Shown piece after piece: positions 1-29,333 of a stretch of DNA of 46,643 nt. The notes under the pieces are model-generated. The model saw only the letters and a program-made list of their open reading frames with translations, was not told the origin of the DNA and did no database searches. Position numbers and translations under genes: made by a program. The stretch is from Candidatus Iainarchaeum sp. (GTDB lineage Archaea; Iainarchaeota; Iainarchaeia; Iainarchaeales; JAGVWC01): NCBI GenBank assembly GCA_018304465.1, contig JAGVWC010000004.1, positions 1 to 46,643 of the forward strand. Reading direction: 5' to 3'. Numbering within the stretch: the first letter of the stretch is position 1; every line of letters begins with the position of its first letter.

Positions 1-590
1 ATGCGGTTAAGTATACATTATACGGTAAGCCTACGTAGGCATTTTTTTTAAAATCGTTAAAAATCGATATCGGAATTTTTAGGGTATTTCACAAAGAGTT
101 TTGGAAAAAACAATGGGGGGTGGCAATCGAATGCGGGGTGGAAGGATGGCACGACGGCAAGTAAGTTATGTATACAACTACTGGGTTTTGGAATACGCTT
201 TTTCGGTGAGAGATCCCTGCCAACGGTTCTTTTTTTCTTCCCCTCCTGTTTTTCCGTTCCCTGGGGTCTCGGGTGTTTTGGCCAAAAAGTATCCTGAAAA
301 GGCTCTTAAACCACTGGATTTTCCCGCCTCTCTGTATTTGGAAGAATAAACACCCTTCGCAACTCGGGGTATATTCCCTGCGTGTGCGATAGACCCTTTT
401 CCTCGTGGTTTTCTTCTTTTTTCGAATTTAACCTGATCTTGTATCCGTTTAGTCCGTCATGGGGTTTACTGATGCCGTTTCGGACCCTGCGTCCCACCCG
501 GTGGATTTTGGAGGTTCTGGGGGCGGGTTTTTGCGCCCACAACAATTAGTTATGTATAATATAGCTACATAATATCCTTTTTACCGCCAT

Positions 591-598
591 GTTTAAAT
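591..598 (+). promoter_or_regulatory. Putative archaeal TATA box for the GGDEF gene (probably a leaderless transcript)
   Basis: GTTTAAAT lies about 23 nt upstream of the ATG at 621, and there is no RBS. Confidence 0.45.
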
Positions 599-620
599 CC
601 CACAAAATCCACTTATTTCC

Positions 621-1511
621 ATGCAATCCCGTCATTTGAAAACGCCTCCCAAAAAACCCCTGGGAAGCGTCCAGCGTTTGCACCGGATTCGCCGCCAACT
701 AAAACGAGCGCCTCCGGCGGTAGGGTCCATTACGGCGTTGTCCAAAGGGCTGGAGCGGTTACACGCGGCATCGTCTCGCGGATTGCGTCGTCAAGAAGCT
801 GAAGTTCGCCGGAAAAATCGATTGCGAGACGGGGGTGTTACGCGTCTTGATTTGGATTTGCTGAGCGCGATTCGACGCAAAGGACATCATTTGATGGCGC
901 CGCGTATTCATCAATTGAGTGAATTGGCGACCAAAGACCCGAAATTTAAAGCATTGTACACGCTTCCCGCGTTTCGAGAAAAAGCCCTGGCCGCGTTTGG
1001 CGGTTCGTCCAGGTCCGGTTCAGGTTCGTCGCGGTGCCTGATCATGGTGGATGTGGATCATTTCAAGGCTTTCAATGATTTGCTCGGGCATGACGCGGGA
1101 GACCAGGTTCTTTCGGAATTCAGCCAAGTGTTGGCCCAACACGCCGAACAAAACCACGGGTTTGCTGGGCGTCACGGAGGCGAAGAATTCCTCGTGTTTG
1201 CTCCGGTTTCACAGGCCCGCGCGATTTCCATGATGGCCGCCGTGCGACGCGATTTGTCTAGCTGGTTTTCGACCGTTTTGGCGCACCGGGTTCGTACGAT
1301 TGATCCCCGCAAGTCCAAAAAGCTTCGTTCGTTGATGCGGTTCATTTCAAATCACCAAATGCCCTTTAGTGCGGGAATGGCGATTCGAAAACCACATGAA
1401 TCATACGACGCGATCGAAAAAAGATCGGATCAATTGTTGTACATGGCCAAACAAACCCGAAACGCGATGATGATCGGTGGCCAAAAAGCTTCGCGCCGAT
1501 TGCTGTTTTAA
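621..1511 (+). CDS. GGDEF-domain diguanylate cyclase with a basic N-terminal extension
   Basis: Canonical motifs IMVDVDHFKAFNDLLGHDAGDQVL, AGRHGGEEF, FSAG and SDQLLYMAKQTRN. No RxxD I-site precedes GGEEF, and no sensor domain or TM segment is visible. Confidence 0.92.
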   Translation: MQSRHLKTPPKKPLGSVQRLHRIRRQLKRAPPAVGSITALSKGLERLHAASSRGLRRQEAEVRRKNRLRDGGVTRLDLDLLSAIRRKGHHLMAPRIHQLSELATKDPKFKALYTLPAFREKALAAFGGSSRSGSGSSRCLIMVDVDHFKAFNDLLGHDAGDQVLSEFSQVLAQHAEQNHGFAGRHGGEEFLVFAPVSQARAISMMAAVRRDLSSWFSTVLAHRVRTIDPRKSKKLRSLMRFISNHQMPFSAGMAIRKPHESYDAIEKRSDQLLYMAKQTRNAMMIGGQKASRRLLF

Positions 1512-1910
1512 CTATAGGTCGTCGTCTTCGACCAGCAATGGAATATGAGTTCTTTTTCCTTTCCGCGGCGGGACTTTTTTTGGCAATTTTCCCCAACTCG
1601 TCGCCAAACGACTTTTTCGCGGGCTTCGGACAAACACTTTGTTCCCGTCAGACCATTGCCATTGTTCGAACACCGAAACGCGCTGGTTGTTGTAGCGGGC
1701 CTGGACCCGTCGGTCGCCTTGTATTCGTCTTCCGGCGTTATCATTATGGGGCCGTCGGTCCGTTACGCGGATTCTGCGTTCGGGTCCTTCGTATGGCATG
1801 CTAGGCGGAACGGGAACCATTTTGCCGTAGTGTCGCCAGCGGTACCCGCTTTTTTTGACGCGAATGATCCCGGTTCTTTTCGGAGCTTGGCGTGGTTTTA
1901 CGTTCGGCAT
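1512..1910 (-). CDS. Basic small protein with YEGPERR...DRR...GRR...DRR arginine repeats (candidate c-di-GMP binder)
   Basis: ATG start with a TATA-like TTTTTATT about 30 nt upstream. Its stop directly abuts the GGDEF stop. The motif is at residues 40-68. Confidence 0.65.
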   Translation of the reverse strand: MPNVKPRQAPKRTGIIRVKKSGYRWRHYGKMVPVPPSMPYEGPERRIRVTDRRPHNDNAGRRIQGDRRVQARYNNQRVSVFEQWQWSDGNKVFVRSPRKSRLATSWGKLPKKVPPRKGKRTHIPLLVEDDDL

Positions 1911-1955
1911 AGGGGATACTCATTATTTTGGAGGAAACCGGAATAAAAACATTGG

Positions 1956-3215
1956 TTATTCCTGTGGTTTTTGAGTGGCGTTCTGGGGTTTGGGGGCCGC
2001 TGGCCAGTACGGTTTGGTGAATCGGTACAACGTATAGATCCCGAACAAAAATAATACCATGAGAATGATGTACGTGGACACCAGAATCGGTGGTCGGGGG
2101 TGAAGCAAGTGCGTGTCCAATAACAGCCGGACCAGTCGGCTTCGAAGGTCATCGGTGTTGGACTCGAATTGTTCTTCGGGCAACGTGACGCTTTCCCGGG
2201 TTAACTCATGGATCTGTGCCTGGATGTCGTTCCATTTTCGTTCCGCGTCCGACGTATCCGCGTTCTCTTTTTTTTTCGATTCGATCAGGTCCGCGGCTTC
2301 TTTTAATCGGCGGTTAAGTTCCTCAAGCACCTTGGACCGGTACTCTGACAGCAAGGGAATTTCAAACGACGCGAACGCGCTGGCTTTTTGGGCGCCAAAA
2401 CTGATTTCGGCTTTAAGCAGGTAGTCTCCGGATGGCGCGGTTTTTGGCAGCGGCAACTGGACATTGATGCGAAGCGGTTTGTCGGAGGGAATGAACAAAC
2501 TGGTGGATTGACTGCTGATGTTTCGGCCAAGGGCATCTTCGACCCAATAGGTGAGCACGAGATCGTCTTCGATCTGACCTTTGTTATGTAGCAATATCAG
2601 GATGTTTTGATCTTCGCCGGGCCGCATTACGTATTTCAAATCTTCGATCGCGATGTCAAACAAAAACTCGGCGGTAATCGTCACGACGCCTGCCCGCGAG
2701 CTGAGCACCTTGTTTTCATCTCTATCCAATAACTCCGCGATCACGTAAAGCCTTCCCGCCTGGGTCGCGTTCCAATCGTCAAACACGAAAATCGTTTCGC
2801 CTTTATGCACCTTGTTTTTTTGAACCGGGTACGTGAAAACGGTTTGCCCGTTTTTCTCGAGGCGCAACCGTAACGCCAGTTCGGTTTCCACGTTCGAATT
2901 GTTTTTGACGATCACGTTGATCATCGGAGAGTCACCCAAAACCGCGTCAAACGCCTGGAGTTCAAGGCTGTATCCTCCCACCACGGGCGGTGGAAGCGGG
3001 GATCCGCCTCCGCCGGGTGAAGGCGCTTCCGGCGTCACGGGGGGTGCGATGGTGCATCCTTCATCAATGACGCCATCACAATTATCGTCAATTCCGTTGT
3101 AACACGTTTCCGCGTAATGACACACCACGAACGTCACATTGATCGGTTCGTTTAAACTCGCGTGAACGCTGATCAGAAATCCGACGAATAGTAGCACGAT
3201 CCACAACGAACGCAT
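1956..3215 (-). CDS. Secreted, C-terminally membrane-anchored Ig-domain protein with a Cys/Asp metal-binding motif (candidate fimbrial anchor)
   Basis: Signal peptide, then N-terminal strand EPINVTFVV, ETCYNGIDDNCDGVIDEGC (MopE-like motif), a Pro/Gly linker, two CARDB-like Ig domains, a coiled coil and a C-terminal TM helix. Confidence 0.8.
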   Translation of the reverse strand: MRSLWIVLLFVGFLISVHASLNEPINVTFVVCHYAETCYNGIDDNCDGVIDEGCTIAPPVTPEAPSPGGGGSPLPPPVVGGYSLELQAFDAVLGDSPMINVIVKNNSNVETELALRLRLEKNGQTVFTYPVQKNKVHKGETIFVFDDWNATQAGRLYVIAELLDRDENKVLSSRAGVVTITAEFLFDIAIEDLKYVMRPGEDQNILILLHNKGQIEDDLVLTYWVEDALGRNISSQSTSLFIPSDKPLRINVQLPLPKTAPSGDYLLKAEISFGAQKASAFASFEIPLLSEYRSKVLEELNRRLKEAADLIESKKKENADTSDAERKWNDIQAQIHELTRESVTLPEEQFESNTDDLRSRLVRLLLDTHLLHPRPPILVSTYIILMVLFLFGIYTLYRFTKPYWPAAPKPQNATQKPQE

Positions 3216-3235
3216 TTTGATCCCGGATGGGTTGA

Positions 3236-3655
3236 TTAGAAAAACAGCGGGTTATCCCAATAAAATACGATCCTTATGGTGCCGTTGTAATCCCCGTCAA
3301 GGGCATTGAAGGGAATCTGTCCCCGGATTACAACCATTTTTTTTTCGTTGGGTCCCATGCGCATGGACACGCTTGGAACCACGGTTAGCCACGGCGCCAG
3401 ATCGCCTTCGGTCACGATTCGCACATACACGGTTTCATTGTACGGATTGGTGACCTCAAAACCGCGTTCCGCCACGCTTCCGGCTAGTCCTTTCCCCATG
3501 TAAAGCGCGTTTCCATCCAGGTTGAATCCCACGCGGTCTCCAACACCTAAAAACACCGGCAAGGAATGAACGGTGCGCGGAATTGACCACACCGCCAAAG
3601 CGAAGCCGATCACAAGTACGATTCCGATCAAAAAAAACAATCGTCGCATAGGCAT
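3236..3655 (-). CDS. Pilin-like/Ig-fold exported protein (minor subunit candidate)
   Basis: N-terminal hydrophobic helix. The pattern LYMGxxxxG...EVTN...GQIP...GDYNGTIRI parallels the layout of the neighbouring pilin-like proteins. Confidence 0.7.
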   Translation of the reverse strand: MPMRRLFFLIGIVLVIGFALAVWSIPRTVHSLPVFLGVGDRVGFNLDGNALYMGKGLAGSVAERGFEVTNPYNETVYVRIVTEGDLAPWLTVVPSVSMRMGPNEKKMVVIRGQIPFNALDGDYNGTIRIVFYWDNPLFF

Positions 3656-3667
3656 TACTACCCGGAT

Positions 3668-4867
3668 TCATTTTTTCTTCAATACCAAGTATCCCAGCGC
3701 GGCAACAACCAACAACAACAACAAAATGACGCCGCCACTGATCATCAACACATTCGGATCCAATTCGGTTTCGGGTTCTTCCGCGTTCACGGGTTCGGTG
3801 GCGGGACGCGTCTTTAGTTCGAGCGGAAACGCTTTGGAAATTATTTTTTCTTCCATGTGAACCACGACATTGAAATCATACGTGTCCGGCGGAACCGAAT
3901 GCGTGTCCAAAAACAAGTCCATGGTGCGGTTTCCCCACGGCGTCATTTCAACGCTTTGACTGGGCACCGTGTTTCGGATCGCGGTTCCGGTTTTGTCAAG
4001 CAAAAACCCCTGCACCCACACGTTTGGAATCGGGCTTCCCCACAAACTGTCGATCTGGGTCTCGACTTTCGTAATTTCTTCGACATATCCTGTCGGAGAA
4101 ATTTTGGTGGGTTCAACCCGAATTTCTCCGATCTTAAAATCCTGCGTGGCTTCAAACGGCTTGTCGCCTCCGAATTCCAGAGTGGCTTTGGCGGTATACA
4201 CGCCGCCTGAAATCTGCGACGGGTTTTCCGCCATCCAATCAAACTCGTCTACTTTGCTTTGCCCTTTGGCGAGCGAAAAATTTCTCGAAGGAAACGATCC
4301 GATGGCCCGACCCTGGGCGTTTCGGACGTCAAAAAAAAGCGTTACATTCAAATCTTCGGATCCAAGATTCGTGCTTCGAACATCAAAAAAAACAGGGTTT
4401 CCTGATTTCACGACATCCAACGCCACGTTTTCCGTTGAAATCGTCGCGCTGGCGAATCGGTACGGAAACGGAATATGCACCCAAAACTGGTGTCCGATCG
4501 CGACCGCGGCGCCGACTTGTCCGCTGCGCGCGCGCCGGTCAATGACTTCACGCGCGACAATCAAGGTTTCGTTTCTCCCATAACTTTCGCTTGACTCCGG
4601 TAACTTGAACGAATACGTGACGTAACGGGTTTCGAACGGATTCAAGTGAAAATTGGTCGGGGAAATCGTCACGTTTTCGGAAAAACCGTTTTCGGCATAC
4701 ATGACAATATCGGCTTCTTTTCCCGAGTTTTCCGTCACGGTTAAGGTGAAACTTCCTTCAAGCCCGGGCCGATAAATCCATTCCACGCGCGCGGGTCCCA
4801 CTGCCAGTCCGAAAAAACCCGGAGAAATCAGCAAAAAAGCAATGAAAACTACGATTTTGGAATCCAT
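3668..4867 (-). CDS. Membrane-anchored PapD/DUF916-like chaperone candidate (three Ig-like domains)
   Basis: Start MDSKIVV at 4867 with a signal peptide. LAVGPARVE...FTLTVTENS...ISPTNFHLNP resembles the N-terminus of PapD/WxL-interacting (DUF916) chaperones. C-terminal TM followed by KKK. Confidence 0.65.
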   Translation of the reverse strand: MDSKIVVFIAFLLISPGFFGLAVGPARVEWIYRPGLEGSFTLTVTENSGKEADIVMYAENGFSENVTISPTNFHLNPFETRYVTYSFKLPESSESYGRNETLIVAREVIDRRARSGQVGAAVAIGHQFWVHIPFPYRFASATISTENVALDVVKSGNPVFFDVRSTNLGSEDLNVTLFFDVRNAQGRAIGSFPSRNFSLAKGQSKVDEFDWMAENPSQISGGVYTAKATLEFGGDKPFEATQDFKIGEIRVEPTKISPTGYVEEITKVETQIDSLWGSPIPNVWVQGFLLDKTGTAIRNTVPSQSVEMTPWGNRTMDLFLDTHSVPPDTYDFNVVVHMEEKIISKAFPLELKTRPATEPVNAEEPETELDPNVLMISGGVILLLLLVVAALGYLVLKKK

Positions 4868-4918
4868 TCGTTCGCCCGTACGTATCCAACGCAACCGAAA
4901 TTAATAAATGTTTTTGAA

Positions 4919-5491
4919 TTAATTCGCGGCTGCCGCTTTAAGCGTAAAAGTCGTCTGAATCAAACCCGCGGGTTGATCCAGCGGCACGAACACGTTCAAA
5001 TCGATGCGAAGGGTATCGTTTGCGGTTTCGAAATTGAATCCTTTCGCAAGACTCGTTCCCGCGGTTCCGGTGTTATAACAATCCCGATACGTGGTGGCCA
5101 CGATCGTGGTCGCGGATCCGCCTTCACTGTTGGCGGCTTTGCAGCCTAAAAAGTTGTGGTCGGAAGGCTTGCTGGTTCCCGTGAAAAAAGCGCTTTCGCT
5201 GTACGCATTCAAATCCACGTCGATGGAACCGTTGTTTTCAACGACGATTCCGGTTCCGCTTTCTGATGTGTTTGAATCTCCGACAAACAAGGTGCCCAAA
5301 TTCAAGTCTTCTCCGGCGGTAATCGTAATCGACGCCGCGCTGACCACCAAAACATTGACGTCCGCGTTGTCAAGCGAAGAAAAAGCAGTCAGGGTTTGCC
5401 GGGGAAACGAAAGCAGTAGATTAAGCACCAGCACCAAGGAAACAAAACCGAATAATCCGATAATGGCTTGTTCTTTTGCGGTAACAGTCAT
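4919..5491 (-). CDS. Pilin-like subunit B (paralog of 5526..6101)
   Basis: N-terminal TM, LTAF motif, strand DVNVLVV, then a beta-rich body with DLNLGTLF, VENNG, a Cys pair and DLNVFVP...G...TFTLKA. Confidence 0.8.
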   Translation of the reverse strand: MTVTAKEQAIIGLFGFVSLVLVLNLLLSFPRQTLTAFSSLDNADVNVLVVSAASITITAGEDLNLGTLFVGDSNTSESGTGIVVENNGSIDVDLNAYSESAFFTGTSKPSDHNFLGCKAANSEGGSATTIVATTYRDCYNTGTAGTSLAKGFNFETANDTLRIDLNVFVPLDQPAGLIQTTFTLKAAAAN

Positions 5492-5950
5492 TCCATCAAA
5501 GCCTTTTTCGTGCCTTGGCCACTCATTAATTGGCGGCCGCTGCTTTAAGCGTCAAAACGGCTTGCACAAGCCCCGCGGGTTGATCCAGCGGCACGAACAC
5601 GTTAAGGTCCACGCGCACGGTATCGTTTGCGGTTTCGAAATTGAATCCTTTACCCAGTGCCGTTCCCGCGGTTCCGGTGTTATAACAATCCCGATACGTG
5701 GACGCAATCACCGTCGTAATCGAACCGCCTTCGCTGTTCGCGATTTTACAACCCAAAAAATTATGGTCGGCGGGTTTACTTGTTCCCGTAAAGAACGCCG
5801 TGGTGCTGTACACATTTAGGTCCACGTCGATGGAACCGTTGTTTTCAACGACGATTCCGGTTCCGCTTTGTGATGTGTTTGAGTCTCCGACAAACAAGGT
5901 GCCCAAATTCAAGTCTTCTCCGGAGGTAATCGTAATCGACGCCGCGCTGA
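4919..5950. repeat. Tandem gene duplication: body of pilin B (~4919-5345) vs body of pilin A (~5526-5950)
   Basis: Long near-identical DNA stretches (e.g. tccacgtcgatggaaccgttgttttcaacgacgattccggttccgcttt in both) with divergent N-termini. Confidence 0.9.
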
Positions 5951-6101
5951 TAATCGTGACATTGACATCGCTGCTTGGCGTTGGAGTCGCGATGATGAAA
6001 CCCGTCAAAAACGGCTGCGTATTAATCAGCAGATTAAATCCAAGCACGACCGCGACAATCACCAGCACCGCGATAATTCCTTTTTCAACCGTTGGATCCA
6101 T
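5526..6101 (-). CDS. Pilin-like subunit A
   Basis: N-terminal TM, LTGF motif, strand DVNVTII; the body is near-identical to 4919..5491. GGAGTGA RBS upstream. Confidence 0.8.
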   Translation of the reverse strand: MDPTVEKGIIAVLVIVAVVLGFNLLINTQPFLTGFIIATPTPSSDVNVTIISAASITITSGEDLNLGTLFVGDSNTSQSGTGIVVENNGSIDVDLNVYSTTAFFTGTSKPADHNFLGCKIANSEGGSITTVIASTYRDCYNTGTAGTALGKGFNFETANDTVRVDLNVFVPLDQPAGLVQAVLTLKAAAAN

Positions 6102-6270
6102 TCGGGATCACTCCTGGTTCCGTTACCGGTTTTTCTTCGGGCAATACGACAAAACTGACGCGCACCGATCCATCGGAGGGCGCGGGGTTGGGTTGACTGT
6201 TCATCACGGTCCAAGTGACGGCCGAGAGCAGCACAACGACTAACAACAATACAATAATCCACTTATTCAC
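6085..6270 (-). CDS. Small membrane protein: TM + linker + single beta-strand (candidate donor-strand anchor/terminator)
   Basis: GTG start with a GAGTGA RBS, MNKWIIVLLLVVVLLSAV TM, then DGSVRVSFVVLP. Its end overlaps the start of pilin A. Confidence 0.7.
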   Translation of the reverse strand: MNKWIIVLLLVVVLLSAVTWTVMNSQPNPAPSDGSVRVSFVVLPEEKPVTEPGVIPNGSNG

Positions 6271-6330
6271 TTTATCACTCTTTTTTGTTATTTCACACTC
6301 TTATTGGTTGTTTCTCTTTTTAATTATTTG

Positions 6331-6338
6331 TATTAAAA
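6331..6338 (-). promoter_or_regulatory. Putative TATA box for the pilin sub-operon
   Basis: TTTTAATA on the minus strand in the AT-rich gap between the adhesin stop (6346) and the GTG at 6270. Confidence 0.4.
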
Positions 6339-6345
6339 CCGCTTA

Positions 6346-7221
6346 TCAGGCTTGTACCGCCGTCATGGTGACGACCGTGGTGCGAACCCCCCCCGGCTCT
6401 CCACCGGGAATCGTTACATTCAAATCCACGCGCACAAGATCCGTGGTGTCTTCATAATTTAACGTGTCAATCGCTCCCGCCGCCACGCCGATCGGCATCT
6501 CAGTATAACTGGACTGGTTTCCGGTCAGGCTCGAACCCGATTCCACGTCAATCACTTTATAGGTAAAATACGTGGAAGTCGTGGTCACTTCCGTGAAAAA
6601 CGTGGTCGCGTCAAAAAGCACGTTCGAATCTACGTTTCCGTTGTTTTCGACCCACAATCCGTTTCGATCGGGTCCTTCCGTGGAATTGGAATCCAACACG
6701 AACAACGTTCCAAGATTCAGGTCGCTGTTGTAAATCACTAGACTCAGAATCGCCTGTGTCAGGAAACCCGGCGAATAATTCCGATCCGTTGAATTTCCCG
6801 CGCCTTGCTGGTCGTTGACTTCGCACCAGATATAATAGTCGCCCGCGTTCCAATCCGAAAGATCGCACATCCGCGCATTGATCATATCCTTGTTTGAATC
6901 CACGTTGGAAAAACACGTATAGGTCTGGGTGTAACCGACATTATCCGTGTCCGCGTAACAACTCGTCTTAAGCGAATTGGCAACATCCGGATCCGACACG
7001 CGCCACACGACATTAAAATCCGTGCTGGCGGCATCGCTTACGCCGTCCGGTTGGATCACGTTGATATCCGGCGGGTTGTTCTGGTTGATCTGAAAGTTGT
7101 GGTCGGAGTAGTCGGTGGTGGTTCCGTTTCGGTCTTGTCCGGTGAGTTTGATGTAGTAGTTTCCGTCGGTGGCTGTGGTGGTGTCCCAGGTGTAGTGGCA
7201 TGTGAATTGGGGTCCTGTTGA
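6346..7221 (-). CDS. Adhesin fragment 4: end of an Ig repeat, an Ig domain and the C-terminal pilin-like domain
   Basis: SDLNLGTLFVLDSN, WVENNGNVD and LNYEDTTDLVRVDLNVTIPGGEPGG...VTMTA match the pilins' EDLNLGTLFVGDSN, VVENNGSID and FNFETANDTVRVDLNVFVPLDQPAG...LTLKA. Confidence 0.85.
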   Translation of the reverse strand, partial: STGPQFTCHYTWDTTTATDGNYYIKLTGQDRNGTTTDYSDHNFQINQNNPPDINVIQPDGVSDAASTDFNVVWRVSDPDVANSLKTSCYADTDNVGYTQTYTCFSNVDSNKDMINARMCDLSDWNAGDYYIWCEVNDQQGAGNSTDRNYSPGFLTQAILSLVIYNSDLNLGTLFVLDSNSTEGPDRNGLWVENNGNVDSNVLFDATTFFTEVTTTSTYFTYKVIDVESGSSLTGNQSSYTEMPIGVAAGAIDTLNYEDTTDLVRVDLNVTIPGGEPGGVRTTVVTMTAVQA

Positions 7222-10200
7222 GTTGTGTATTCGAGTTGCGCGTTCAGGTCAATGGGTTGTCCAAACTCGCTTTCGAAATTGAAGTCGATGGTTTGGGTTC
7301 CGCTTAAAACGTTGTAATCCGACGGAGAAAGCACTTGCACGTAGGGACCGTTTTGATCGTAGTGGTATCCGATGTCGATCTTGCCGGTATCCAGTTTGTT
7401 GCTCTGATACGACGTGCGGATATTGAAGAAATTGTTGATGTCGACTCCGTTGGAATCCTCGTTTCCCGCGTTCAAGAGTGGTTGGCCGGCATTCGCATTG
7501 GTGTTCAACAAGAAGTTCCGGTCTGTTCCATCCGCGATAAACGGGGTTCCGCTTAGATACACGCTGCCGGTTCCTTCGGTGGCACCGGTGATATTCGTGT
7601 CGTTTGCCCAAAACGCGTTGTGGTTGGAGTCCAGTTGTCCGCCCTGGGCGTACACCGCGGTTCCCGTATTGAACGCGAAAATATTGTTGTAATTCTTTTG
7701 CACCACGCCATTAGTGTCCCGCGTGAGGATCGCGCCGCCAAACAAAACCGCGGAATTATTCGAAAACGTGTTGCTGTAAAAGTTGATCAAGCCGTTTTGG
7801 TCCCAGACGCCGCCTCCGCTTCGCGCCTTGTTGTCCGCGAACAAGTTATTGTAAAAATTGACGATGTTTCCAAGATTATACAATCCGCCCCCATTTCGGT
7901 CCGATGACGTGGTGACGACGTTTCCGGTGATGGTATTGTTGTAAAAGTTCGTGATGGTTCGCAGATTATACACGCCGCCGCCGTATGACCCGTAGGAATT
8001 GTTGTCCCGAATCGTGTTGTTGAAAAAATTCGTCACGTTTCCCGATGCTGTGTCAAACAAGACCCCGCCGCCTTTTCCGGCTGATTTGTTGTTGGTGATG
8101 ACGTTGCCGTAAAAATTGGTGATGGTATGCCCGTTGCCGAAAAACGCTCCGCCGCCACCGCCGTTACTTTCAATGCCCGTGTTATACGTGAGGGTGTTGT
8201 TGTAAAAATTGGTGATCCCCCCCCATGAGGTAATCGCGCCGCCGTAACTTCCTCCTTGGTTTTGCGTGAAGGTATTGTTGTAGAAATTGGTGATGGCACC
8301 ATGGAATCTCGCTATTCCGTACCCCGTGTAATTGTTTCGAATGACGTTGTTGTAAAAGTTCGTGATGGTCGGGCTGGTCGAATAAATGGCGATTCCCCCG
8401 CCGCTTGCGTTTCCGTTAATGTCGTGGATGGTGTTGTTGTAAATGTCGGTGACCCCACCGGATACGACCGCGATTCCCCCGCCAGTAAAGTCTCCGCAGT
8501 TTAGGTCGTGAATGTTGTTGTCATGGATCGACCCGATGTATCGCATTAAAACGATTCCGCGTTTTCCAAACTCGATATTTAAATCATCCAACGAATTGAC
8601 GTCAGACCAGACAAGAGCACCTGCAGCCAGATAAATCGCGGTGTTATAATCCGCTTTTTGGGGTGCTCCGGTGCTTCCGTTGATACTGGCTCCGATGGAG
8701 TTGTCATTGGCGCTCGTAAACGTGATTTTTTTGGCGCTTGTTCCCTGGGCTTTTAGCGCCCCCCCGGTCGTCACATTAATGAACGTGGTGCCGCCGGTTT
8801 TGTACTTGACGATCGCACCCGGTTGAATTGTCAACTGGCATCCGCGGACATCTATGTTTTCATCCACGTTCAAATAATACGTGTTTCCGTCGTACCATGT
8901 AACGTTGGCGTCTCCTGGTTGGCACACAGACGCGTACAGCGTGTTGTAAGCTGTGTTTAGGATCTGAAAGTTGTTGTCGGAGTAGTCGGTGTTGGTTCCG
9001 TTTCGGTCTTGTCCGGTGAGTTTGATGTAGTAGTTTCCGTCGGTGGCTGTGGTGGTGTCCCAGGTGTAGTGGCATGTGAATTGGGGTCCTGGATGATCAC
9101 CGTGCCAGAACCCGTACTGGTCGTCGTGTACTCCAATTGCGCGTTCAAATCCGCGGCTTGACCAAACTGCGATTCGACATTAAAATCAATCGACTGTGTG
9201 CCCACAAGGGTATTGAAATCGCTCGGACTGACAATGATAACCCCCGGTGCATTCTGATCAAAATGATACCCGATGTCGATTGTACCGAGGTCAAACCGAT
9301 TTGATTGTTGAGTGGTCCGAACGTTAAAGAAATTATTAATATCGACATTGTTCGAATCCACGCCGCCGGCATCCACTAGTTTTGCTCCGCCGGTTGAAGT
9401 CGTGTTGAGTAAAAAGTTTCGATCGGTCCCGTTTGCAATAAACGGATCGGTCGTGAAACCGGTCGCGGAATTAACGTCGTTATTCGTTTGACCGTTCACA
9501 GCGCCTGTTGACCCGACCTGAAAATACGCATTATTAGACACCGTTGCGGACGAATTGATATCTTTGAGTGCTTGTCCCATGTTCACGAACAAATTCCGCT
9601 GGATTTTTCCGGTGAAACTTTTGATGTTCATAATGCCGTATCCACCGGAAGCAAAATTGGCAAACGTGTTGTTGTAAATGTTTCCTGAAAATGCCGTGGT
9701 CAATCTGATGCCTGTTCCGGTGCCTGACCCGTTTAACAGGAGGTTATTGTAAATATCAGCCGAGCCGGTGTTTGCAAGCACGATATAATTCGCGTTTGCA
9801 GCCATGCTCACAAATCGGTTGTTGAAAATCGCCGAGCGTGAAGCCCCGGCGTTTATGATGTATACCCCATAATTAGCGCTGTTTTGGATCACGTTGTTGT
9901 AAATGGATCCGAACATCGTGCCGTTTCGGTAAAATACCTGCGACGCGCTGGTGAAGTTGTTGTCAAAAATGTCGCCTCTGTATTCTCCCGCGTTCCATGC
10001 ATAAATCGAATTGGTGGCGGAGACGAAGTTATTACGGTAAATGTGTCCCGAGATCGACCCGTCGGCGCTGGTGTCAATCGCAGTCGCCATCGACTTGAAC
10101 GAGTTTTGAAAAACGTTTGCGTCCGTGGCGCGCGTGAACTGGACTCCGGTAGTTCGAATATTTTGGAAGTTGGAATCGTGCACGCTTCCGATGTTTTGAT

Positions 10201-13200
10201 CCAAACGGATTCCGATGTTTGAATCGAGTATTCTCAGAAACGAAAACGAATCCGCTTTTGTCATTGCGGCATCGGATTTCACCCAAATCGCGTTGTTGTA
10301 GTCGCCTAATGCGGGGCTTCCGCTACAACCGCTTACCAGTTCGGTGTTTTGATTGGTGCTTCCAGAATAAGCGGATTGGTCTTTGCACGACGTGAAAATA
10401 ATGTTCGCGTCCGCGCGGCCATTCGCAATCAAACGGCCACCATTTACCACCTGAAGATTGGCACTGGTTTTGTATTTGATGACGGTTCCGGGTGCGATGT
10501 TGAGGTCTACTCCCGCACCCGTTATGTTGACATCACAGGTTAAGAGGTACGTGTTTTGATCCCAGTTGGTATCGCTAGAAATGTCGCCGCACACCGTGGT
10601 AGCACTGGTGTGACTGATTTGAAAGTTGTGGTCGGAATAATCGGTGGCTGTAAGTATATCCTCCGTGAAATCGACTCGGATGAAATAGTTTCCATCCGGA
10701 ATTCCGGTAGTGTCCCACTCATAATGACAAACATAGTGGGGTCCCGCGCTACAGTTGTACGCCGCCGCATCCAGTGTGTCGGAACTAATCGTGGTGCCGG
10801 CTCCAGGGTTTGTCGTGGAATAATATATTTCTAGTCCCAATGCGGATGGATCTGTTCCGTTTCGATCCGCGTTAAAGTCAATCGTTTGCGTTCCGGTTAA
10901 CACGTTATAATCATTCGGAGAGGTTACTTGTACAAAGGGGGCATTCTGATCTTGGTGGAAACCGATATCCACTTTTCCGGTGTCAAGCCGGCTGTTTTCC
11001 TGGGTGGTCCGCGACAAGAAAAATGCATCGGAATTCACGCCACCGGCATCCACTAATTTTGTTCCTCCCGTGGCGGTAATATTAAGCAAAAAATTCCGGT
11101 CGTTTACGCCGCCAAACGGATCCGTCGTAAAACCGGTCAGTGTGTTTTGGTCGCCGACGTGGTTATTCGGTGTTCCGCCTGGAGTTGAAACGTCAAAATA
11201 TCCGTTGAAAGCAACGGTCCCCGAATAGCTTGAACCGCCCGTAACTGCAAGCACGGTGCCCACGTTTGCAAACAAGTTTCGCTGGGTTTTTCCAGTCCAG
11301 TTTGCCCCGGTTCCGTTATGGAGCGCGTTTGTGGGGCCGAAAATCGTATTGTTATTGACGTCGCCGGTAATGTTGACGGCGCTTTCTACGACATCGCCGT
11401 TGTAAATCGCGTAGTTTCCGAAAAACGGGGCGAACAAGTTGTTGTAGATGTGGCCGCTGATAATTCCATCGGTAACCGTGCCGGTGTTGCTGATTCCAAT
11501 TCCGGCACCCGGAACTGCGGTGAATCGATTGTCGAAAATGGGTCCGCTAATGGTTCCGCCCTCATTGTTGATTCCGATTCCGGTGCCCATCCTGAAATTG
11601 TTGTCGCGAATCGCTCCGGAAACCGTAAGGCTTGCGATGTAAATTCCGTCTCCGCTTCCGGTGGCAACATTAAAGTCGTTGTCGTAAATGCTTCCCGAAA
11701 AAGTACCGTTGGTCACTGAAACGACATAGCTTTCGCTTCCCCTAAAACGATTATTGTAAATATTGCCGGTAAACGTGCTCGTAGTCATGCGAATGGCCGG
11801 CGACGCGTTAAAATCCAAAAAGAAATTGTTGTAAATGTGACCGTAATGCCCGCTGGCGGTATCAATCCCGGCAGCGCTGGCACTGAAATACTGGAACGCG
11901 TTGGAATAAATGTTCACGTCGCTTGAAAGCCGCAATAAGACGCCTCTTCCGTATGAGGTTGAAAAAAACGAGAAATTATTGTCATGAACGCTACCGATGT
12001 TTTGATCCAATTCCACTCCCACATTGGCGTCCCGGATTTTTAGGTACGAAAACGAATCCGATTTGGTCATTCCGGCAGTTCGACGAATGTGAATCGCAAC
12101 GTTATAGTCATTGGCGCTCGGACCTCCGGAACAACCCACTTGGGCGTTGGTATCGGCTCCGAAATTCTGGTCTTTGCACGACGTGAAAATAATGTTTTTG
12201 TCCGCCCGCCCGTTCGCCAGAATTCTTGCGTTGTTTAACACCGAAAGACTCACGCCTTCCTTGTACTTGACGATCGCGCCGGGCTGAATGTTCAAATCCA
12301 CGCTGCTTCCGGTCACGTTCACGTTACAGGTCAACAAATACGTGTTTCCGTCGTACCAGTTCTGGTCGCTTGTGATGTCTCCGCATCGCACGTTGTAATC
12401 CGAAGGACTGTTTAGCACTTGGAAATTTTGGTCGGAGTAATCTGCCATGCTTCCGTTATCATCGCTGCCTGTTAAGCGGATAAAATAATTTCCATCCGTC
12501 GCCTGGGTCGTATCCCATTCCACTGAACATCGCGCAACCGGAAAACCACTGGAGCACGTATAATCCGACACAGTTGTGCCCCCCGCAATTTCAGTCCCTG
12601 CATCACTGGGAGTAGGCGTATACGATATCGAAGCACCGACCCCGGCTTCGTAACTGAATCCGCTTTCCACGTTAAAATCGATCAATTGCGTTCCAGACAG
12701 AACATTGTAATCACTCGGAGAAAGCACTTGCACGTAGGGTGCGTTTTGATCGTAGTGGTAACCGATATCGATGGTTTGCGTGTCAAGCTTGTTGTTGGAT
12801 TGTGTGGTTCGCAGGTTGAAGAAATTGTTGACGTCCACGTTGTTGGAGTCGATTCCGCCGGCGTTTACGAGTTTGGCTCCGCCTGTACTCGTGGTGTTTA
12901 ACAAAAAGTTTCGATCGGTGTTTTCGGCGATGAAGGGGTCCGTCGTGAAACCGGTTTCGGTGTTTTGGTCTCCGACATGATGAGACGGAACGACGGAGGG
13001 TGCTTCGATCGTGGTCACGTTGAAATACGCATTGTTGCTTACGGTCGCGGTTGAATTGATGTCTTTGATTGCTTTTCCTGTTACGTGGGCGAACAAGTTG
13101 CGCTGGATTTGGCCGCTGAACGTGGCCGTACTGGCAATCGCGTTCGCGTCTCCCACATTGAAAAATAAGTTGTTGTATACCTGGCCATCTCCGTTTCCAC

Positions 13201-16200
13201 TTATGAGAATTCCCGTCGAGTTCAAGCCGATGGACAAGAACCGGTTGTTGTAAATCGAATACGCGCCGTTGTAATTGATTCTGAATTCAATTCCGGTCGA
13301 ATACGTCAGGAGCGAAAAATCATTGTTGTATATATTTCCGGATCGTGTCGTCGAGGCGGCGGTGAACCGGATTCCGGTGGTCCAGGCGGACATCGTGAAA
13401 TTATTGTCGTTGATCGAACCGTAAAAATGGTCGGTGACCGACAGACACGTCACAATGCAGGACAAAAACTTGTTCTTCGAAATGCTTCCGGACAAAGCGC
13501 CGGTCCCATAATACGGATAAGCCCCTCCGATGGCAAAGGTGTTGTTGAATATCTGCCCCGAATAACCCCTCGCACGGATCGAATACGTGTCATAACTGCC
13601 CATATTTCCGAAGTAGTTGTTGTATATCCACACGTTTGAATCATACGGGAAATAAATCGCGGAGATCGCTCCTGTCCAGATGTTATTGGTGATAAAACCA
13701 AAGTTGGAGTCGTGAATCGACCCGATGTTCAGATCCGTTTTCACCCCGAAGTTGGCGTCAAATATTTTCAAGTACGAAAACGAATCCGTTCCCGTCATTC
13801 CCGAACTAGACCGGACATAAATGGCGGTGTTGTAATCCCTTGGACTTGGCGCCCCGGCGCATCCGGCCGCGTCCGAAGTGTCTTCGTTGGTGCTTCCGGT
13901 GTAGGTGTTTTGGTCTTTGCAACTGGTGAAGATGATGTTTTTGTCGGGTGTTCCATTGGCGAGGATTCTTCCTCCGTTGGATGTAACGAGGCTGGTTCCG
14001 GTTCCAGAATATTTTACGACGGTTCCAGGAGCGATGTTTAAGTCGACTCCCGCACCCGTGACATTGACATCACAGGTCACCAGATACGTGTTTTGATCCC
14101 AGTTGGTGTCGACGGTGATGTTTCCACAGGTTTCGGTCCACGGATTTGCCGTGTTCTGGATTTGGAAGTTGTTGTCGCTGTAGTCGGTGGTGGTTCCGTT
14201 TCGGTCTTGTCCGGTTAGTTTGATGAAATAATTTGCATCCGCGGCTGTTGTCGTATCCCATGAATAGTGGCAACTAAATTGTGGTCCGGTAGAACAATTA
14301 TAGCTTGCTTGGTTGAGGTTTTGGTCGATGATCACCGTGCCAGAACCCGTACTGGTCGTCGTATACTCCAACTGCGCGTTCAAATCCGCTGCTTGTCCGA
14401 AACCCGATTCGACATTAAAATCAATCGATTGCGTACTCGTCAACGTGTTATAATCGCTTGGCGACACGACGATCACGAATGGCACGTTTTGGTCATGGTG
14501 ATAACCGATATCGACCTGGGCAAAGTCAAGCTTGTTGTTTTGCTGGGTGGTTCGGACGTTGAAGAAATTGTTGATATCCACGTTGTTCGAATCCACGCTG
14601 CCGGCGTTCACGAGCTTTAAGCCGCCGCTCGCGTTTTCGTTAAGCAAGAAATTCCGGTCGGATCCGTCCGCAAGAAACGGATCTGCACTGAATCCCGTCG
14701 TTGTATTCTGGTCTGCAACATGCTGGCTGGGAGTCCCACCCTCGTTGGATACGCCGTAGTACGCGTTGTTTGAAACCGTTCCGGAAAACGTTCCGCTTAG
14801 GCCATACAATTGTCGGACGAACAAGTTACGCTGAACACTTCCCGTAAAAGTAGCGTTGTTGTAAATCGCGCGTGCCGTGGTGCCTCCGTAGGCAAACGTG
14901 TTGTTGAAAATCCGACCGCTAAACGTTCCCACCGCAAGACCGAATCCCGCGTAGGGCCCGTTTGTTCGAACAAAAAGATTGTTGTAAATGTCGGAAGAAG
15001 TCGTGGAACCGGTGGAGGCCACGATGGACGCCGCATTGGCATTGGTGATGTTGAAAAAGCGGTTGTTATAGATGGGGCCCGTGGTGTTTCCGAGTAAAAA
15101 CATCATGTAGTCGCTTCCAGTGCCCGTAATCGTGTCAAAATTATTGTCATAGATTCTTCCGGTCATCGTGCCTGCTTGATAGATTCCGTGGCCCAGGGTG
15201 TTGTAAATCGTGTTGTTGTAAAAATCTCCGGAAAACGTTCCGCTGATATAAACCGCCATCGACCCGTCAAGAAAATTCGTGAACCGGTTGTTGTACACAC
15301 GGCCGCCCCACACAGAACCGGCCAAGTTTCGAATTCCGTATCCGGAAAAGTTAGAAAAGTTATTGTCGTAAAAATCAAGTTCGAATCTTCCGGACGCGAC
15401 GTAAAGTCCATATTTTCCGGTCGTTTGTCCCTCAAAACGATTCCGATAAATGCTTCCGTTCGAATCCGTGGAAGCGAAATACATCAGGTATGTCGCATCG
15501 CTGTTGGAAAAATTGTTGTCGTGGAATTGTCCGTCAAAATTTGAAGAAACATAAAATCCGTAGCTGCTTCCGGTCAAGTGAATGATATTGTTATCATAAA
15601 TATCTTGGTTGCATTGCGAAAGGTAGTAACAATAAATGAGTCCGCTTGAGTTGTTTAGGTCCTTGAACACGTTGTTATAGATTTTCCCGTCATTGATGCC
15701 CTGAAAATATGAAATTGTCCAAATTCCATTGCTGTCTTTGAACAGATTATTGTGAACGTTTCCCGTATGGGTTCCCAGGAAAAAGATCGGCATTCCGTTT
15801 CCTGTTCCAAGGCCAAAATCATGGAACACGTTATTGTAAACATTCACGTCGCTTGCGACAGTCAAATAAATTGCCGCTTGGGCATCGCCCGTAAAGCGTT
15901 TCATGATAATCGTTTGGCTTTGGCGCGCCCGAACAACCGGGTCTCGTTGAAGTATTCACGTTGTTGGAGCCAGCATACGCGTTCTGATCTTTACAGCTGG
16001 TGAAAATAATGTTTTTGTCCGGGGTTCCGTTGGCTACGATTCGACCGCTGTTTTGCGCATATATTCGACCGGTGACCGTGTACTTGATGACCGCCCCCGG
16101 TTGAATCGTCAGGGTGGTGCCGGCGTCGGAAACAATCACAATACATGTCACCAGATACGTGTTGCCGTCAAACCATGTTTCGGACGACGAAATCGATCCG

Positions 16201-19200
16201 CATTTTTCGTACAGGTTTTCCTCGGTCTGGTTCGCGTCGAGGCTTAAGTACTGGATGTTTACATCTTGCACGTGAATCGTGTTGGAATCAAACGGGTTCT
16301 GTTGCCAAAAATTTCCCAGCTGAGAATAATTCTGATCCAGTAAAAGACGGTACTGAAAAAATCTTCCGCGGCCGCCTTGACCGCCGTTTAAATCAAACGC
16401 GACTCCGCTTTGCGGTCGTCCATCACTTGAAAAAGGCGGGTTCGCGGAACAAGCGGCATTCGTGCAGACGCGGCTTTGGAACTGCACTCCGCTCATGACC
16501 GCGTTGGTGTCAAACGTCACTTTGGCCTTGTTGAAGTTACAGTCCGTACACCAGCCATTGGCATTTCCGTCAAAAACCTTGGAATAATAATGTCCGGTCC
16601 ACCATCGGTTGTAGTCTGCGGCGACTTCCTCGTCGGACAACGCCCGATCAAAGATCTTGACTTCTTCGAGCGCGGCATTGAGGTACTTGATGGCAGTGGC
16701 GTGATTGCTGTTTCCGATATACGCCGGGTTGACGGTGGACCCAAATGTCGCGTCGATGCTTGTGGTATTCTGCTGATCCAACACCCCGTTCTTGAACAGT
16801 TTGATATAGCTTCCGCCTTTGAACACGCCGCAGTAATGATCCCATCGGTCGGAGGTCACCAGATTCGTGGAGCCTTCGACGCGGCTTCCCAAGGCATTAT
16901 TCGAAAATGAAAGCGTGTTGGTGCGGCCAGAGGTAACGGCGACATCGTCCACCCAGAAAAGCCATCCGCTATCCGCATTCCATTTGGAAACAATGGCGCC
17001 ATCCACCGTGACGGACGTCGGATAATATTTCATCCAAAAACAAATCGATCCCTCCGGTTTTCCGTCGAGCAACGTTGTGGTTTGCGGATTGACGTATCCC
17101 GAAGACCCGTTGGCGTAGAGCGCGTTGGTGTCAAACAATCCGAGCGCGTTGGTGTCCGCGCTTCCCGAAATCAGTCCGTCCAGGTTTTCAAGCGAGTAAT
17201 CCTGCGCGTAGGAACCGTTGGTATCGTTGAATTTCCAGTATCCCACGAGGTTTTTGTCAAGCGTGCCTTCGTAATACAAATTATTGATATCGATTGGAGA
17301 CAATACGCGGTCGTAGACCCGAAAGTCGTCAAACGGGTTGGACGCAAGATACAACGCCTGAGTATTCGCGGATAGGTTTGGACTAAAGTTAGCTACATAG
17401 ACCCCGTTGAGGTATCCGCGCGCGGTGGTACCATCCATTGTGACGGCGATATGGTTCCATTTATACAGATTCGGCACGGTTTCCCAGCACCAGGACATCC
17501 CGTAAAAATCCACTGCCAAACTGTTTAATGTTACACACACCAGGTATTCGCCGTCGATAAATACGCCTGGTTTGTTGGTCAACTCTGTAGCGCCGTTGAT
17601 ATACTCCGGCCGCACCCAAAACGCGAACGTGTACGGCGTTGTCATATCAATCACGGATTTTCCGATCATGGTTCCCGCTCCAATGTTGGCGCCTTGACGC
17701 GTTCCGCGGATTCCGCTCCAATTGTTGTCTTGAAACGTTGTTGATTTTTTCAACGCATTTCCGCGGCCGGTTTTGTCCAAAAAATGCGTGGAATTCTGGT
17801 CGTCAAAATCGATCCACATCAATAGATTCCGATCGCTGGTCACTTGCCCCATCGTTTCCACGTTGGCGTCCAGTTCTCCGGTCAAGGTCAGGTTTCCATC
17901 AAACCCCATTTTCGTCCAGTTGAAATCATGCTTGGCGGGGTAAGCGGTTTCGTTGGTGTCAAACACCGTGTTGGCGTCCGAATACCAATACGGATCGATG
18001 GTAAAATGCTGGCCGAACTTCAAATCGTATTTTCCATTGCTTCCCGCCGGAACCATGAATTCCACAAAAAGCTCTAGTGAAGAATGCGCGTCAACGCACG
18101 TTCTGTCCGCGGCCACGTTTCTAAACGAACGCTTTTCGATTTTCTCGCCGCTTTTTTTTTGGATTCTGATGGCACAGTTTCCTTTTTCATCAATGGATTC
18201 GCAGGAAACGGTTTTGGGTTCGCTTTCGCCCGACCCGATTTTTCTTGCCCGAACCACGCATTCATTCCCATTGAGGGTTCCGTTCACGCATTTTCGGGTC
18301 AAAAGGTTTTGTACGTACACCGGAACCGCAACGTTGCGTTCAATATTCGCTTTTGTTTTTCGGTTTTGAATCAACACCGAGGCAGGAGAAAGATCCGTTC
18401 CAAAAAAGCAATACGCTTGATCGGACGTGTTTTCAAACACCACAGGCACGCGGCAGTTTTCTCCTGAACAACGCACGGTTTCCTCCAGAACCCGCAGTTC
18501 GAATTCACTGGTGCGGATTCCGATCGTGTTTTCGCCGGCAATGTCCTCGACCACGGAATAATTCAGGGGGGATAATTCCGCGGCATTCAACGGTTCCCGG
18601 GTTTCCAAAACTCGCTCTTCGGCCAGATCCGAATCCAGGTCCGTTGCCAGGATTCCTTTTGTTTCGGATTCGGAAGTCACGTTGACCGGAACGATCACGT
18701 TTCCGTTTTCATCGATAATCGTTGCGACGCCGCTTTCATCCAAGACGCGGACCTGATTGATGTCCGGAATCGGAACATTGACAAGCGTGTTTTCGTCCGC
18801 TGAAAGATACAGGTGAAAATCCACCGCGTTCACGAATAATACGAATTCGGTGCTGGGCCGGATCCGCAAATCCAGCGAGATCCCTCCGCCGGTCGATTGC
18901 AGCAAGGCATCCGCCAAATCGCATTCCAGCAACCGCGGAACCGTCGGAATCGAAACCGCGGGACACTGGTCCATCGGAACCCAGTCGCCCTCCAGGCGCA
19001 GATACGTAGCCGCGAATTCGCTTCCGTTTCTGTCGGTTGCTTGGATGTCCATCCAAAACGGCGCTGAAATCAAAAAAAGCGTGGACTCACCGGGATTAAA
19101 AGGCGTGAGCCGATTGAAATCAAACGTGAAACGATACTCGCGGTCGCCCAGCAATCCAACCAGTCCGAAATTGGCATCGGCGTCGTTGATCCGAAACGAC

Positions 19201-28947: not shown

Positions 28948-29333
28948 CGGACGGTCCCTCGCGGTCTTTTTTTCCCCTGCCATGCTTCGGCTTTTTTCAT
29001 CAAAACCGTTCGAACCCTGGGTTTTTGCGGCGCTCCGGGAATTAACGGATCCACTTTTTTAGGTTCGCCTGCAAGTCGCCGTTCAACCCGCTGCTTTGGC
29101 GACTCGACTTCCGGAGCGGCCAATCGCCTGAGAACCCGCGCTTTTTCTTTTTTGCGTTTCGCTTCTTTTTCGTCCAAATATAATTTTGCGCCTTTGTATC
29201 CGACTACGCCCATCATGATTCCGGTCACGGGGGAAGGAACAACGATTCCCGCGGCAACTGACGCGGCGGCTAATCTGCGAAACGAGCGTTGTTTTTGCTC
29301 AACCGGCGTCAAAGGTTTTTTTCTCATGGTCAT
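28944..29333 (-). CDS. Orphan basic protein with a hydrophobic hairpin (MTMRKKPL...)
   Basis: TGATG overlap with the HMGS stop; segment LAAASVAAGIVVPSPVTGIMMGVVG. Confidence 0.7.
   Translation of the reverse strand: MTMRKKPLTPVEQKQRSFRRLAAASVAAGIVVPSPVTGIMMGVVGYKGAKLYLDEKEAKRKKEKARVLRRLAAPEVESPKQRVERRLAGEPKKVDPLIPGAPQKPRVRTVLMKKAEAWQGKKRPRGTVR

Follow-up and report, generated by a model that had tools for sequence, protein, structure and literature searches.

GGDEF proteins of archaeal isolates were described recently by Sidorov et al. (Mol Microbiol, 21 Sep 2026; PMC13725321), who also cover 20 such proteins derived from metagenome-assembled genomes (MAGs), mainly of DPANN and class II archaea. 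Several of the archaeal proteins consist of the GGDEF domain only or carry short extensions, and three of seven proteins were active in the riboswitch assay. The co-occurrence of EAL or HD-GYP domains and the identity of archaeal receptors for c-di-GMP (cyclic dimeric guanosine monophosphate) are named there as open follow-up questions. Here we analyse two genes or putative genes at the very start of a 46,643-nucleotide stretch of Candidatus Iainarchaeum sp. (hereafter the window): a GGDEF diguanylate cyclase gene (621–1511, + strand; 296 aa) and a 132-codon open reading frame (ORF) that converges on it from the opposite strand (1512–1910, − strand). An earlier note on this DNA had proposed them as a cyclase–receptor pair tied to adhesin control, starting from the view that c-di-GMP has no established role as a messenger in archaea; that view has been partly overtaken by the September 2026 paper. 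We consider it probable, though well short of certain, that the locus holds a native, probably active, stalk-dimerised cyclase beside a fast-changing orphan ORF, whose partial match to the arginine motif of Cle proteins is probably coincidental.

Since archaeal GGDEF proteins are already described in PMC13725321, the window cyclase is a further example of a published kind. Like the cyclases described in that paper, it is short and consists of a GGDEF domain with an N-terminal stretch that holds no known domain, possesses a canonical GG(D/E)EF motif and an aspartate in xxGD, has archaeal contig neighbours, and yields a model that matches active bacterial cyclases. It differs from the description given there at the wide turn with its DxLT motif, reading DPKF (RDPKF family-wide). 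The presence of GGDEF across an order without EAL or PilZ, described below, does not appear in those sections of the same paper that we read.

Among bacterial enzymes, the best sequence and fold matches are SiaD of P. aeruginosa (7e6g) and DgcB of C. crescentus (6ttr/6tts), in which a helical stalk is likewise followed by the GGDEF domain. However, the window cyclase is only 24–29% identical to them. It is not a SiaD orthologue, because it scores 85.6 against the SiaD equivalog model with its cut-off of 290, and, unlike for SiaD, no SiaC-like partner was identified for it.

The second comparison concerns the Cle proteins. Their arginine-rich region (ARR) is a tandem of [Y/F]xGP[D/E][R/K]R motifs flanked by conserved arginine and aspartate residues (PMC5677366, PMC7382256), and binding of c-di-GMP is ascribed to DRR-x11-(R/K)RxxD (PMC7382256). 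According to the latter paper, changing the tyrosine, the glycine or Arg169 of the second motif in the minimal CleD peptide leaves at least 25-fold weaker binding or none, and the ligand-free Cle peptides are disordered. The 302 ARR carriers counted in these papers (PMC5677366, PMC7382256) are 91% CheY-like, with the ARR at the C-terminus of the receiver, and 294 of the 302 are alphaproteobacterial. The 132-codon ORF resembles the Cle ARR and the CSP peptides described there in having one heptad, an arginine-rich disordered setting and an RxxD nearby; it differs from the Cle ARR by its lone copy, placed mid-ORF, by the lack of a receiver domain and by the lack of detectable homology. In PMC13725321, PMC5677366 and PMC7382256 we saw no report of a Cle-type region in archaea.

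Sequence and Predicted Structure of the Cyclase

By its sequence, the gene at 621–1511 (TAA stop at 1509–1511) is a complete GGDEF diguanylate cyclase with intact substrate residues. The protein matches Pfam PF00990 (E 2.1e-21; 76.8 bits, cut-off 23.8) and TIGR00254 (78 bits, cut-off 37.4), and the NCBIfam SiaD-type model aligns over residues 81–279. A phmmer search of the Protein Data Bank sequences matched 38 GGDEF chains, the top one being Caulobacter DgcB (6tts; E 1.2e-16, residues 113–279), while a search of genome contigs with the cyclase sequence gave as its sole match a 65-residue core in a Halomonas record. The layout comprises a basic N-terminus, two long helices forming a predicted stalk (residues 37–104) and the GGDEF domain (~105–285).

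The GGEEF active-site motif, read from the translation, occupies residues 186–190 (codons at 1176–1190, + strand). The metal- and guanine-binding signature, assigned from the DgcB alignment and from conservation in the order, spans D144–D161 (codons at 1050–1103, + strand; DVDHFKAFNDLLGHDAGD). The stretch DVDHFKAFNDLLGHDAGD pairs residue for residue with DgcB, and RHGGEEF likewise lines up with its DgcB counterpart. Residues 144–161 agree with the pattern DxDxFKxxND...GHxxGD, the xxGD part ending in Asp and not in Ser. In an alignment of 30 sequences (the cyclase and 29 GGDEF proteins of the same order), D144, N152, G160, G186, G187, E189, G252 and K277 are invariant, and D146, K149, G156, H157, D161, R184 and D270 are at least 90% conserved. 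A serine in place of this aspartate marks GGDEF domains that make cyclic GMP-AMP (cGAMP), as quoted in PMC13725321; position 161 of the window cyclase is Asp, the c-di-GMP type and not the cGAMP-type Ser. Where the same paper expects the domain to open with a wide turn that carries DxLT, the cyclase reads KDPKF and the order consensus RDPKF, keeping the Asp and not the Leu-Thr.

The cyclase gene carries no RxxD ahead of GGEEF. The inhibitory site (I-site) of this form lies five residues upstream of GG(D/E)EF, and the residues of the window cyclase at the expected position read QNHG.

An AlphaFold2 model built on the 30-sequence alignment (predicted local distance difference test, pLDDT, 83.9; predicted template modelling score, pTM, 0.73) has helices at residues 16–28, 37–68 and 75–104, followed by the GGDEF fold. 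Its top Foldseek matches are SiaD (7e6g), DgcB with its coiled coil (6ttr) and a GCN4-WspR fusion (3i5c). Foldseek probability is 1.00 to more than 30 solved cyclases, and the target-normalised template modelling score is 0.79–0.85 for isolated GGDEF domains. The paired helices are probably a stalk through which the protein dimerises; if SiaD, DgcB and WspR are a guide, two GGDEF domains joined in this way would condense two GTP to c-di-GMP. From the model and the missing RxxD we infer a soluble, stalk-dimerised enzyme without product inhibition.

The gene itself is identical over its 891 nt to that of a 99.5%-identical strain (0 differences). By the usual geometry of archaeal promoters, the TTTAAA at 592–597 (+ strand), ~26 nt before the ATG, could be a TATA box, and as a promoter it would possibly imply a leaderless or short-leader mRNA. 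Just past the gene, T-runs at 1551–1557 and 1575–1583 (+ strand) and a hairpin at 1561–1573 resemble terminator elements at which the cyclase transcript would end. A scan for promoters and terminators of bacterial type gave counts no higher than in shuffled sequence.

Origin of the Cyclase Gene

The window covers the initial 46.6 kb of contig C5, one of 15 contigs in a 92%-complete assembly of 1.246 Mb. The earlier note itself had named the possibility that bases 1–1950 are a chimeric bacterial fragment, here meaning one misassembled onto an archaeal contig. Such an origin would fit the position of the genes at the very start of the contig, a domain that is typically bacterial, and a cyclase coding score that is low for the genome (16th percentile). 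The composition of the region speaks against it: synonymous codon use of both ORFs (621–1511 and 1512–1910) follows the genome, and bases 1–1950, ranked by tetranucleotide distance to the genome among 630 equally long windows, come out at the 33rd percentile. The assembly as a whole holds a full-length archaeal small-subunit rRNA (1406.7 bits) beside an archaeal large-subunit rRNA, and the window includes a mevalonate-pathway cluster.

Independent contigs argue in the same direction. A metagenome contig of 9196 nt (L015; ~9.2 kb), 99.54% identical to window positions 1–7144, reaches 5 kb into the surface-protein locus described below and runs 2052 nt beyond window base 1, into genes of a LAGLIDADG endonuclease and an inositol-monophosphatase-family protein, so that the contig start is passed by 2 kb. 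Logan contigs of four DNA runs cover 1–4000 with similar depth either side of 1950 in all four, and position 1950 itself is crossed by two of them from different runs (1–2123 in run X3; 74–2054 in run X4). The contig breaks at ~1935–2125 coincide with strain bubbles, that is, alternative strain versions. In groundwater or soil samples the organism attains a contig depth of 5–10x. Moreover, GGDEF is found in 68 other genomes of the order, and a second GGDEF-type gene stands mid-contig elsewhere in this assembly. We therefore give the chimera next to no credence; as far as contigs can show it is refuted, and by these sequence data the cyclase gene is native to the archaeon.

The second gene, on contig C6 (L002:973–2010, + strand; 345 aa, PF00990 E 3e-6), has GGDEL instead of GGDEF, a degenerate substrate-binding signature and no RxxD at the I-site position. 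Its N-terminus is long and basic, like that of the window cyclase. It is possibly a non-catalytic paralogue.

GGDEF and Partner Domains across the Order

The earlier note had suggested a search of the genome for EAL, HD-GYP, PilZ and MshEN domains, and in the 92%-complete assembly none was found: the best EAL match (13.3 bits) is below the cut-off, and profile searches for PilZ, HD_5, MshEN and DUF520/YajQ gave no match. The c-di-GMP-I and c-di-GMP-II riboswitches (RF01051 and RF01786) gave none either. Because the assembly is incomplete, these negatives stand as "not found".

Among 196 genomes of the order, a sample in which many genomes are incomplete, GGDEF is above cut-off in 69, this one counted; it occurs in 22 of the 55 genomes of at least 90% completeness and in 31 of 73 genera. 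Its presence is near-universal in some families (18/19, 6/7 and 15/23 genomes), and it was found in none of the three other genomes of the window's own family (0/3). The holders include single-contig genomes. EAL above cut-off and PilZ were each found in none of the 196 genomes. HD_5, of the HD-GYP type, is above cut-off in 17 (20 at E up to 0.001), and 8 of the 20 HD_5-matching genomes also hold GGDEF. None of EAL, PilZ and HD_5 is seen in 61 of the 69 GGDEF-positive genomes.

Does the enzyme then serve c-di-GMP signalling inside the cell at all? The protein might instead make a nucleotide for release to the host or to neighbouring bacteria, form another product, or act as a nucleotide-binding scaffold. 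This would accord with the 69 GGDEF-positive genomes without EAL or PilZ, only 8 of which are among the 20 with an HD_5 match, and with the lack of a known degrading enzyme or receptor in the present genome, although missing known receptor families do not show missing receptors. It would also accord with the absence of a product-inhibition site ahead of GGEEF. Yet all GTP-binding and catalytic signature residues are present, with position 161 of the c-di-GMP type, and no export system is linked to the cyclase gene. The assays of MAG-derived archaeal GGDEF proteins presented in PMC13725321 gave inconsistent results, a further point in favour of a role outside signalling. On this evidence such a role seems to us doubtful, and we keep to the reading of a probably active cyclase.

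Across 34 distinct loci of relatives, the recurrent neighbours of GGDEF genes are clade-specific housekeeping genes; neither surface-protein genes nor a small partner ORF recurs there. Of the link to adhesin control in the earlier note, what stands is the adjacency of cyclase and surface-protein genes in one species, and the housekeeping surroundings in relatives do not bear out anything wider. By comparison of the sequences, the cyclase is one of a varied group of short "stalk plus GGDEF" proteins, present in roughly one in three genomes of this DPANN-type order.

In seven of the relatives' loci, the N-termini of the GGDEF proteins share a basic segment RVxLKSGxxVxTPLVR, after which come a helical region and RDPKF; the segment has no Pfam name among the proteins scanned. 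The window cyclase is without this segment.

Coding Status of the Convergent ORF

The 132-codon ORF ends in a TAG that is the reverse complement of 1512–1514 and, as the cyclase TAA ends at 1511, the two stop codons abut. The coordinates of the earlier note proved correct throughout when checked in the sequence, including this stop-to-stop convergence of an intact GGEEF cyclase at 1511/1512 and the DRR/GRR-bearing stretch at 1707–1793 in an ORF lying 45 nt from the next minus-strand gene (1956–3215). The predicted product is very basic (16% Arg, 9% Lys), with an acidic C-terminal end, and is predicted to be disordered; its ESM Atlas model has a pLDDT of 0.24 and a pTM of 0.10. The ATG lies 45 nt past the stop of the 419-aa surface-protein gene on the same strand (spacer 1911–1955).

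The ORF has no Pfam or NCBIfam family and no homologue in 40 relatives. A word-based search of a library of 5.8 billion clusters returned its own 99%-identical variant only, and phmmer against 1.84 billion representatives returned that variant and a spurious PKD-repeat protein. Coding potential was scored in bits per codon with a three-periodic fourth-order Markov model. The ORF scores 0.038. None of the other five frames does better, but among 878 shadow ORFs this value reaches only the 91st percentile, and long genes have a median of 0.26. When 444-nt stretches are simulated, 17–20% contain an open frame of at least 132 codons and 1.4–2.1% contain two.

Compared with the 99.5%-identical strain, 6 of the 33 differences in 7.1 kb fall in the 399 nt of the ORF. 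Three of these single-nucleotide polymorphisms (SNPs) are synonymous third-position changes and three replace amino acids (W25R, H27Y and P54S); none of the six is at a second codon position. The six sites form two blocks, which occur in all four combinations among the four runs, and the frame is open in all. Going by these comparisons, the ORF is a species-specific and fast-changing orphan.

No structured RNA is indicated in 1512–1955 (fold z-score +0.51), and Rfam gave no match in the window at gathering thresholds, nor in L015 5100–9196 at E up to 1. The Shine-Dalgarno 4-mer core precedes 23% of long ORFs against a background of 9%, and because it is so little used in the genome this evidence is uninformative. 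Spacer length is uninformative as well, 18% of convergent spacers being of at least 440 nt under a crude gene caller. Among the 10 listed runs that hold the sequence, none is an RNA run. We put the chance that the ORF is a translated gene at roughly one half: it may encode a basic, disordered small protein produced from the end of the surface-protein operon, or may be spacer sequence that happens to stay open.

An ORF of 133 codons in the mirror frame (1545–1946, + strand) was weighed as the real gene of 1512–1955 and rejected. It starts 33 nt past the cyclase stop in the same direction, as a co-transcribed gene would, and its three amino-acid polymorphisms are conservative (I66V, V71I and N89D). 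Its coding score of −0.161, however, equals the shadow-ORF median; it has no Pfam family, and 150 genomes of the order gave two marginal matches (E 0.002 and 0.005), one with 5 stops. The T-runs at 1551–1557 and 1575–1583 and the hairpin at 1561–1573 resemble a cyclase terminator. We regard this alternative as highly improbable.

Two resemblances of the 132-codon ORF were also tried and rejected. It looks by eye like the "RVxLKSG..TPLVR" N-terminal module of the relatives' GGDEF proteins, a kinship rejected by a hidden Markov model of seven relatives' N-termini: searched against 13,892 genome ORFs, the model did not place the ORF among its 15 best matches (best E 0.36). The stretch GYRWRHYGK recalls a WRKY domain; the sister strain has W→R and H→Y within it, and the ORF has no Cys residues.

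The Arginine-Rich Stretch

The minus-strand stretch 1707–1793 encodes ORF residues 40–68, in which YEGPERR is followed by DRR, GRR and DRR. The heptad YEGPERR (residues 40–46) is an exact match to [YF]xGP[DE][RK]R and the only one in the 2,491,956 six-frame residues of the 1.25-Mb genome. Chance alone predicts 0.87 matches from composition and 0.58 as the mean of twelve Markov-3 simulated genomes, and a single genome match is therefore expected.

The earlier note's identification of a Cle-type arginine motif stands for this one heptad and fails for the rest of the arrangement. No second [YF]xGP occurs in residues 47–132, so the motif is not in tandem, and the spacing DRR-x11-(R/K)RxxD is absent from the 132-aa product: eleven residues after ERR (44–46) lie N58 and A59, and after DRR (51–53) G65 and D66, the nearest arrangement being RR (61–62)-x3-D66. 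Pfam and NCBIfam show no CheY-like receiver in the ORF, the motif lies mid-ORF, and phmmer against the 1.84 billion representatives revealed no detectable sequence relationship to ARR proteins. In the GGDEF loci of 37 relatives (119 kb), the strict heptad, the shorter GP[DE][RK]R and a three-fold RR pattern are all absent (0 each). The polymorphism P54S directly follows the first DRR.

The case for a receptor would be that the 132-aa protein is real and binds the product of the cyclase through the arginine-rich stretch, folding on it like the CleD peptide, and then acts on the surface-protein operon or the cell surface. The ORF might then be a new minimal disordered c-di-GMP binder, with one Cle-like heptad and neighbouring RR dipeptides and RxxD, paired with a cyclase that lacks an I-site. 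We find both statements improbable. The exact heptad is unique in the genome and adjoins the cyclase, yet its frequency equals chance. Further RR dipeptides and an RxxD lie close by, but the second motif of the tandem is missing, and with it the stacking Tyr and Gly, as is DRR-x11-(R/K)RxxD, and in the CleD peptide changes to the second-motif Tyr, Gly or Arg169 cost at least 25-fold in affinity or all binding (PMC7382256). The ORF runs in the same direction as the surface-protein genes, begins 45 nt after them, and is the best coding frame of six. Four haplotypes keep it intact and leave the motif core unaltered; nevertheless, this is the most polymorphic region of the 7 kb compared, with radical changes (W25R, H27Y and P54S). 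The absence of any other receptor type in the genome and the place of archaeal receptors among the open questions named in PMC13725321 leave room for a receptor of this kind, whereas the lack of a homologue deprives it of support from conservation, with no such motif in any of the 37 relatives' GGDEF loci.

Several observations do weigh against the reading of a cyclase beside a coincidental motif. The sole Cle-pattern match of the genome lies 196 nt from the cyclase stop, and by our own arithmetic the chance of a heptad inside either GGDEF-type gene or within 1 kb is about 0.003–0.004; with 69 GGDEF-bearing genomes in this order alone, such a positional coincidence will turn up. YEGPERR has RR dipeptides and an RxxD (RVTD) in its close neighbourhood. 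The minus frame scores best of the six, stays open in four haplotypes and shows no second-position change among its six SNPs. Disorder in the model of the ORF is no argument against binding, because ligand-free Cle peptides are disordered too (PMC7382256). With no known receptor type found, use of c-di-GMP within the cell would require a receptor of some unknown kind. As to activity, which we predict here from the active-site residues, three of seven MAG-derived archaeal GGDEF proteins were active in the most sensitive assay of PMC13725321.

We nonetheless regard YEGPERR as most probably a chance match, favoured by the arginine-rich composition of the ORF. The co-occurrence of the two genes in relatives, which the earlier note had offered as a check on its cyclase–receptor pair, fails at the outset: the 132-aa ORF has no homologue anywhere searched, and the two genes therefore do not co-occur in relatives. 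The pair is not borne out by an ORF of uncertain gene status without a homologue, carrying half of a tandem Cle motif and lacking the x11 spacing, and by comparison with the relatives the two ORFs are not a conserved cyclase–receptor module.

Surface-Protein Genes and Other Features of the Window

The last clear gene of the surface-protein run (1956–3215, − strand; 419 aa) has a coding score of 0.27. Its product has a hydrophobic N-terminal segment, a second hydrophobic segment near the C-terminus and a Cys-rich MopE-like motif just under the cut-off (PF11617, 25.5 bits against 27). At 1935–2125 and 3108–3221, the contigs of all four runs split into versions with 0 or 6–7 differences, and the co-existing strains therefore differ mostly at the ends of this gene.

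Further along the same strand, tandem paralogues of 190 and 191 aa (4919–6101) share a hydrophobic N-terminal segment and belong to no Pfam family; their DNA is 85–86% identical over ~430 nt. The ESM Atlas look-alikes of the 190-aa protein are archaeal hypothetical proteins, most commonly of Woesearchaeota/Nanobdellota, which is a lead and not a classification. Three large ORFs of 623, 2315 and 1229 aa follow (7056–19520, − strand), with right-handed beta-helix and Laminin_G_3 (concanavalin-like) domains; the last two overlap by 74 nt. They probably encode giant surface proteins. The earlier note had called this run fimbrial: its co-directional surface-protein genes are there, while the fimbrial label is unproven and the 190- and 191-aa paralogues match no Pfam family.

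Upstream of the cyclase, positions 1–620 hold no convincing ORF and no Rfam match. In L015 this ORF-poor stretch runs 93 nt further, to ~713 nt in total (L015:6525–7237), which is unusual for a compact 1.25-Mb genome. Beyond it lies a free-standing LAGLIDADG endonuclease gene (L015:7238–7858; PF00961 E 1e-13). At window 175–205, L015 and run X3 only show seven differences within 31 nt, including TACT→GGGG at 179–182. A second homing-endonuclease-like gene in or beside the window is a 419-aa ORF with a LAGLIDADG_3 domain (27724–28983, − strand; E 1e-4), which lies inside the mevalonate-pathway cluster, flanked by a thiolase gene and an ACP_syn_III_C-type ORF.

Implications

The solid result is a native archaeal cyclase gene, as judged from sequence, whose family occurs in about a third of a DPANN-type order. 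If the 132-codon ORF did bind c-di-GMP, improbable as we find this, it would give a first handle on the archaeal receptor question and rank as the first archaeal candidate for a c-di-GMP receptor, from a DPANN order that has cyclases and neither EAL nor PilZ. GGDEF without EAL or PilZ across the order is a better experimental starting point than the gene pair of a single species. With neither domain found in the 196 genomes, these archaea would have unknown receptors and degradation routes, or would use the nucleotide differently, for example towards partner cells.

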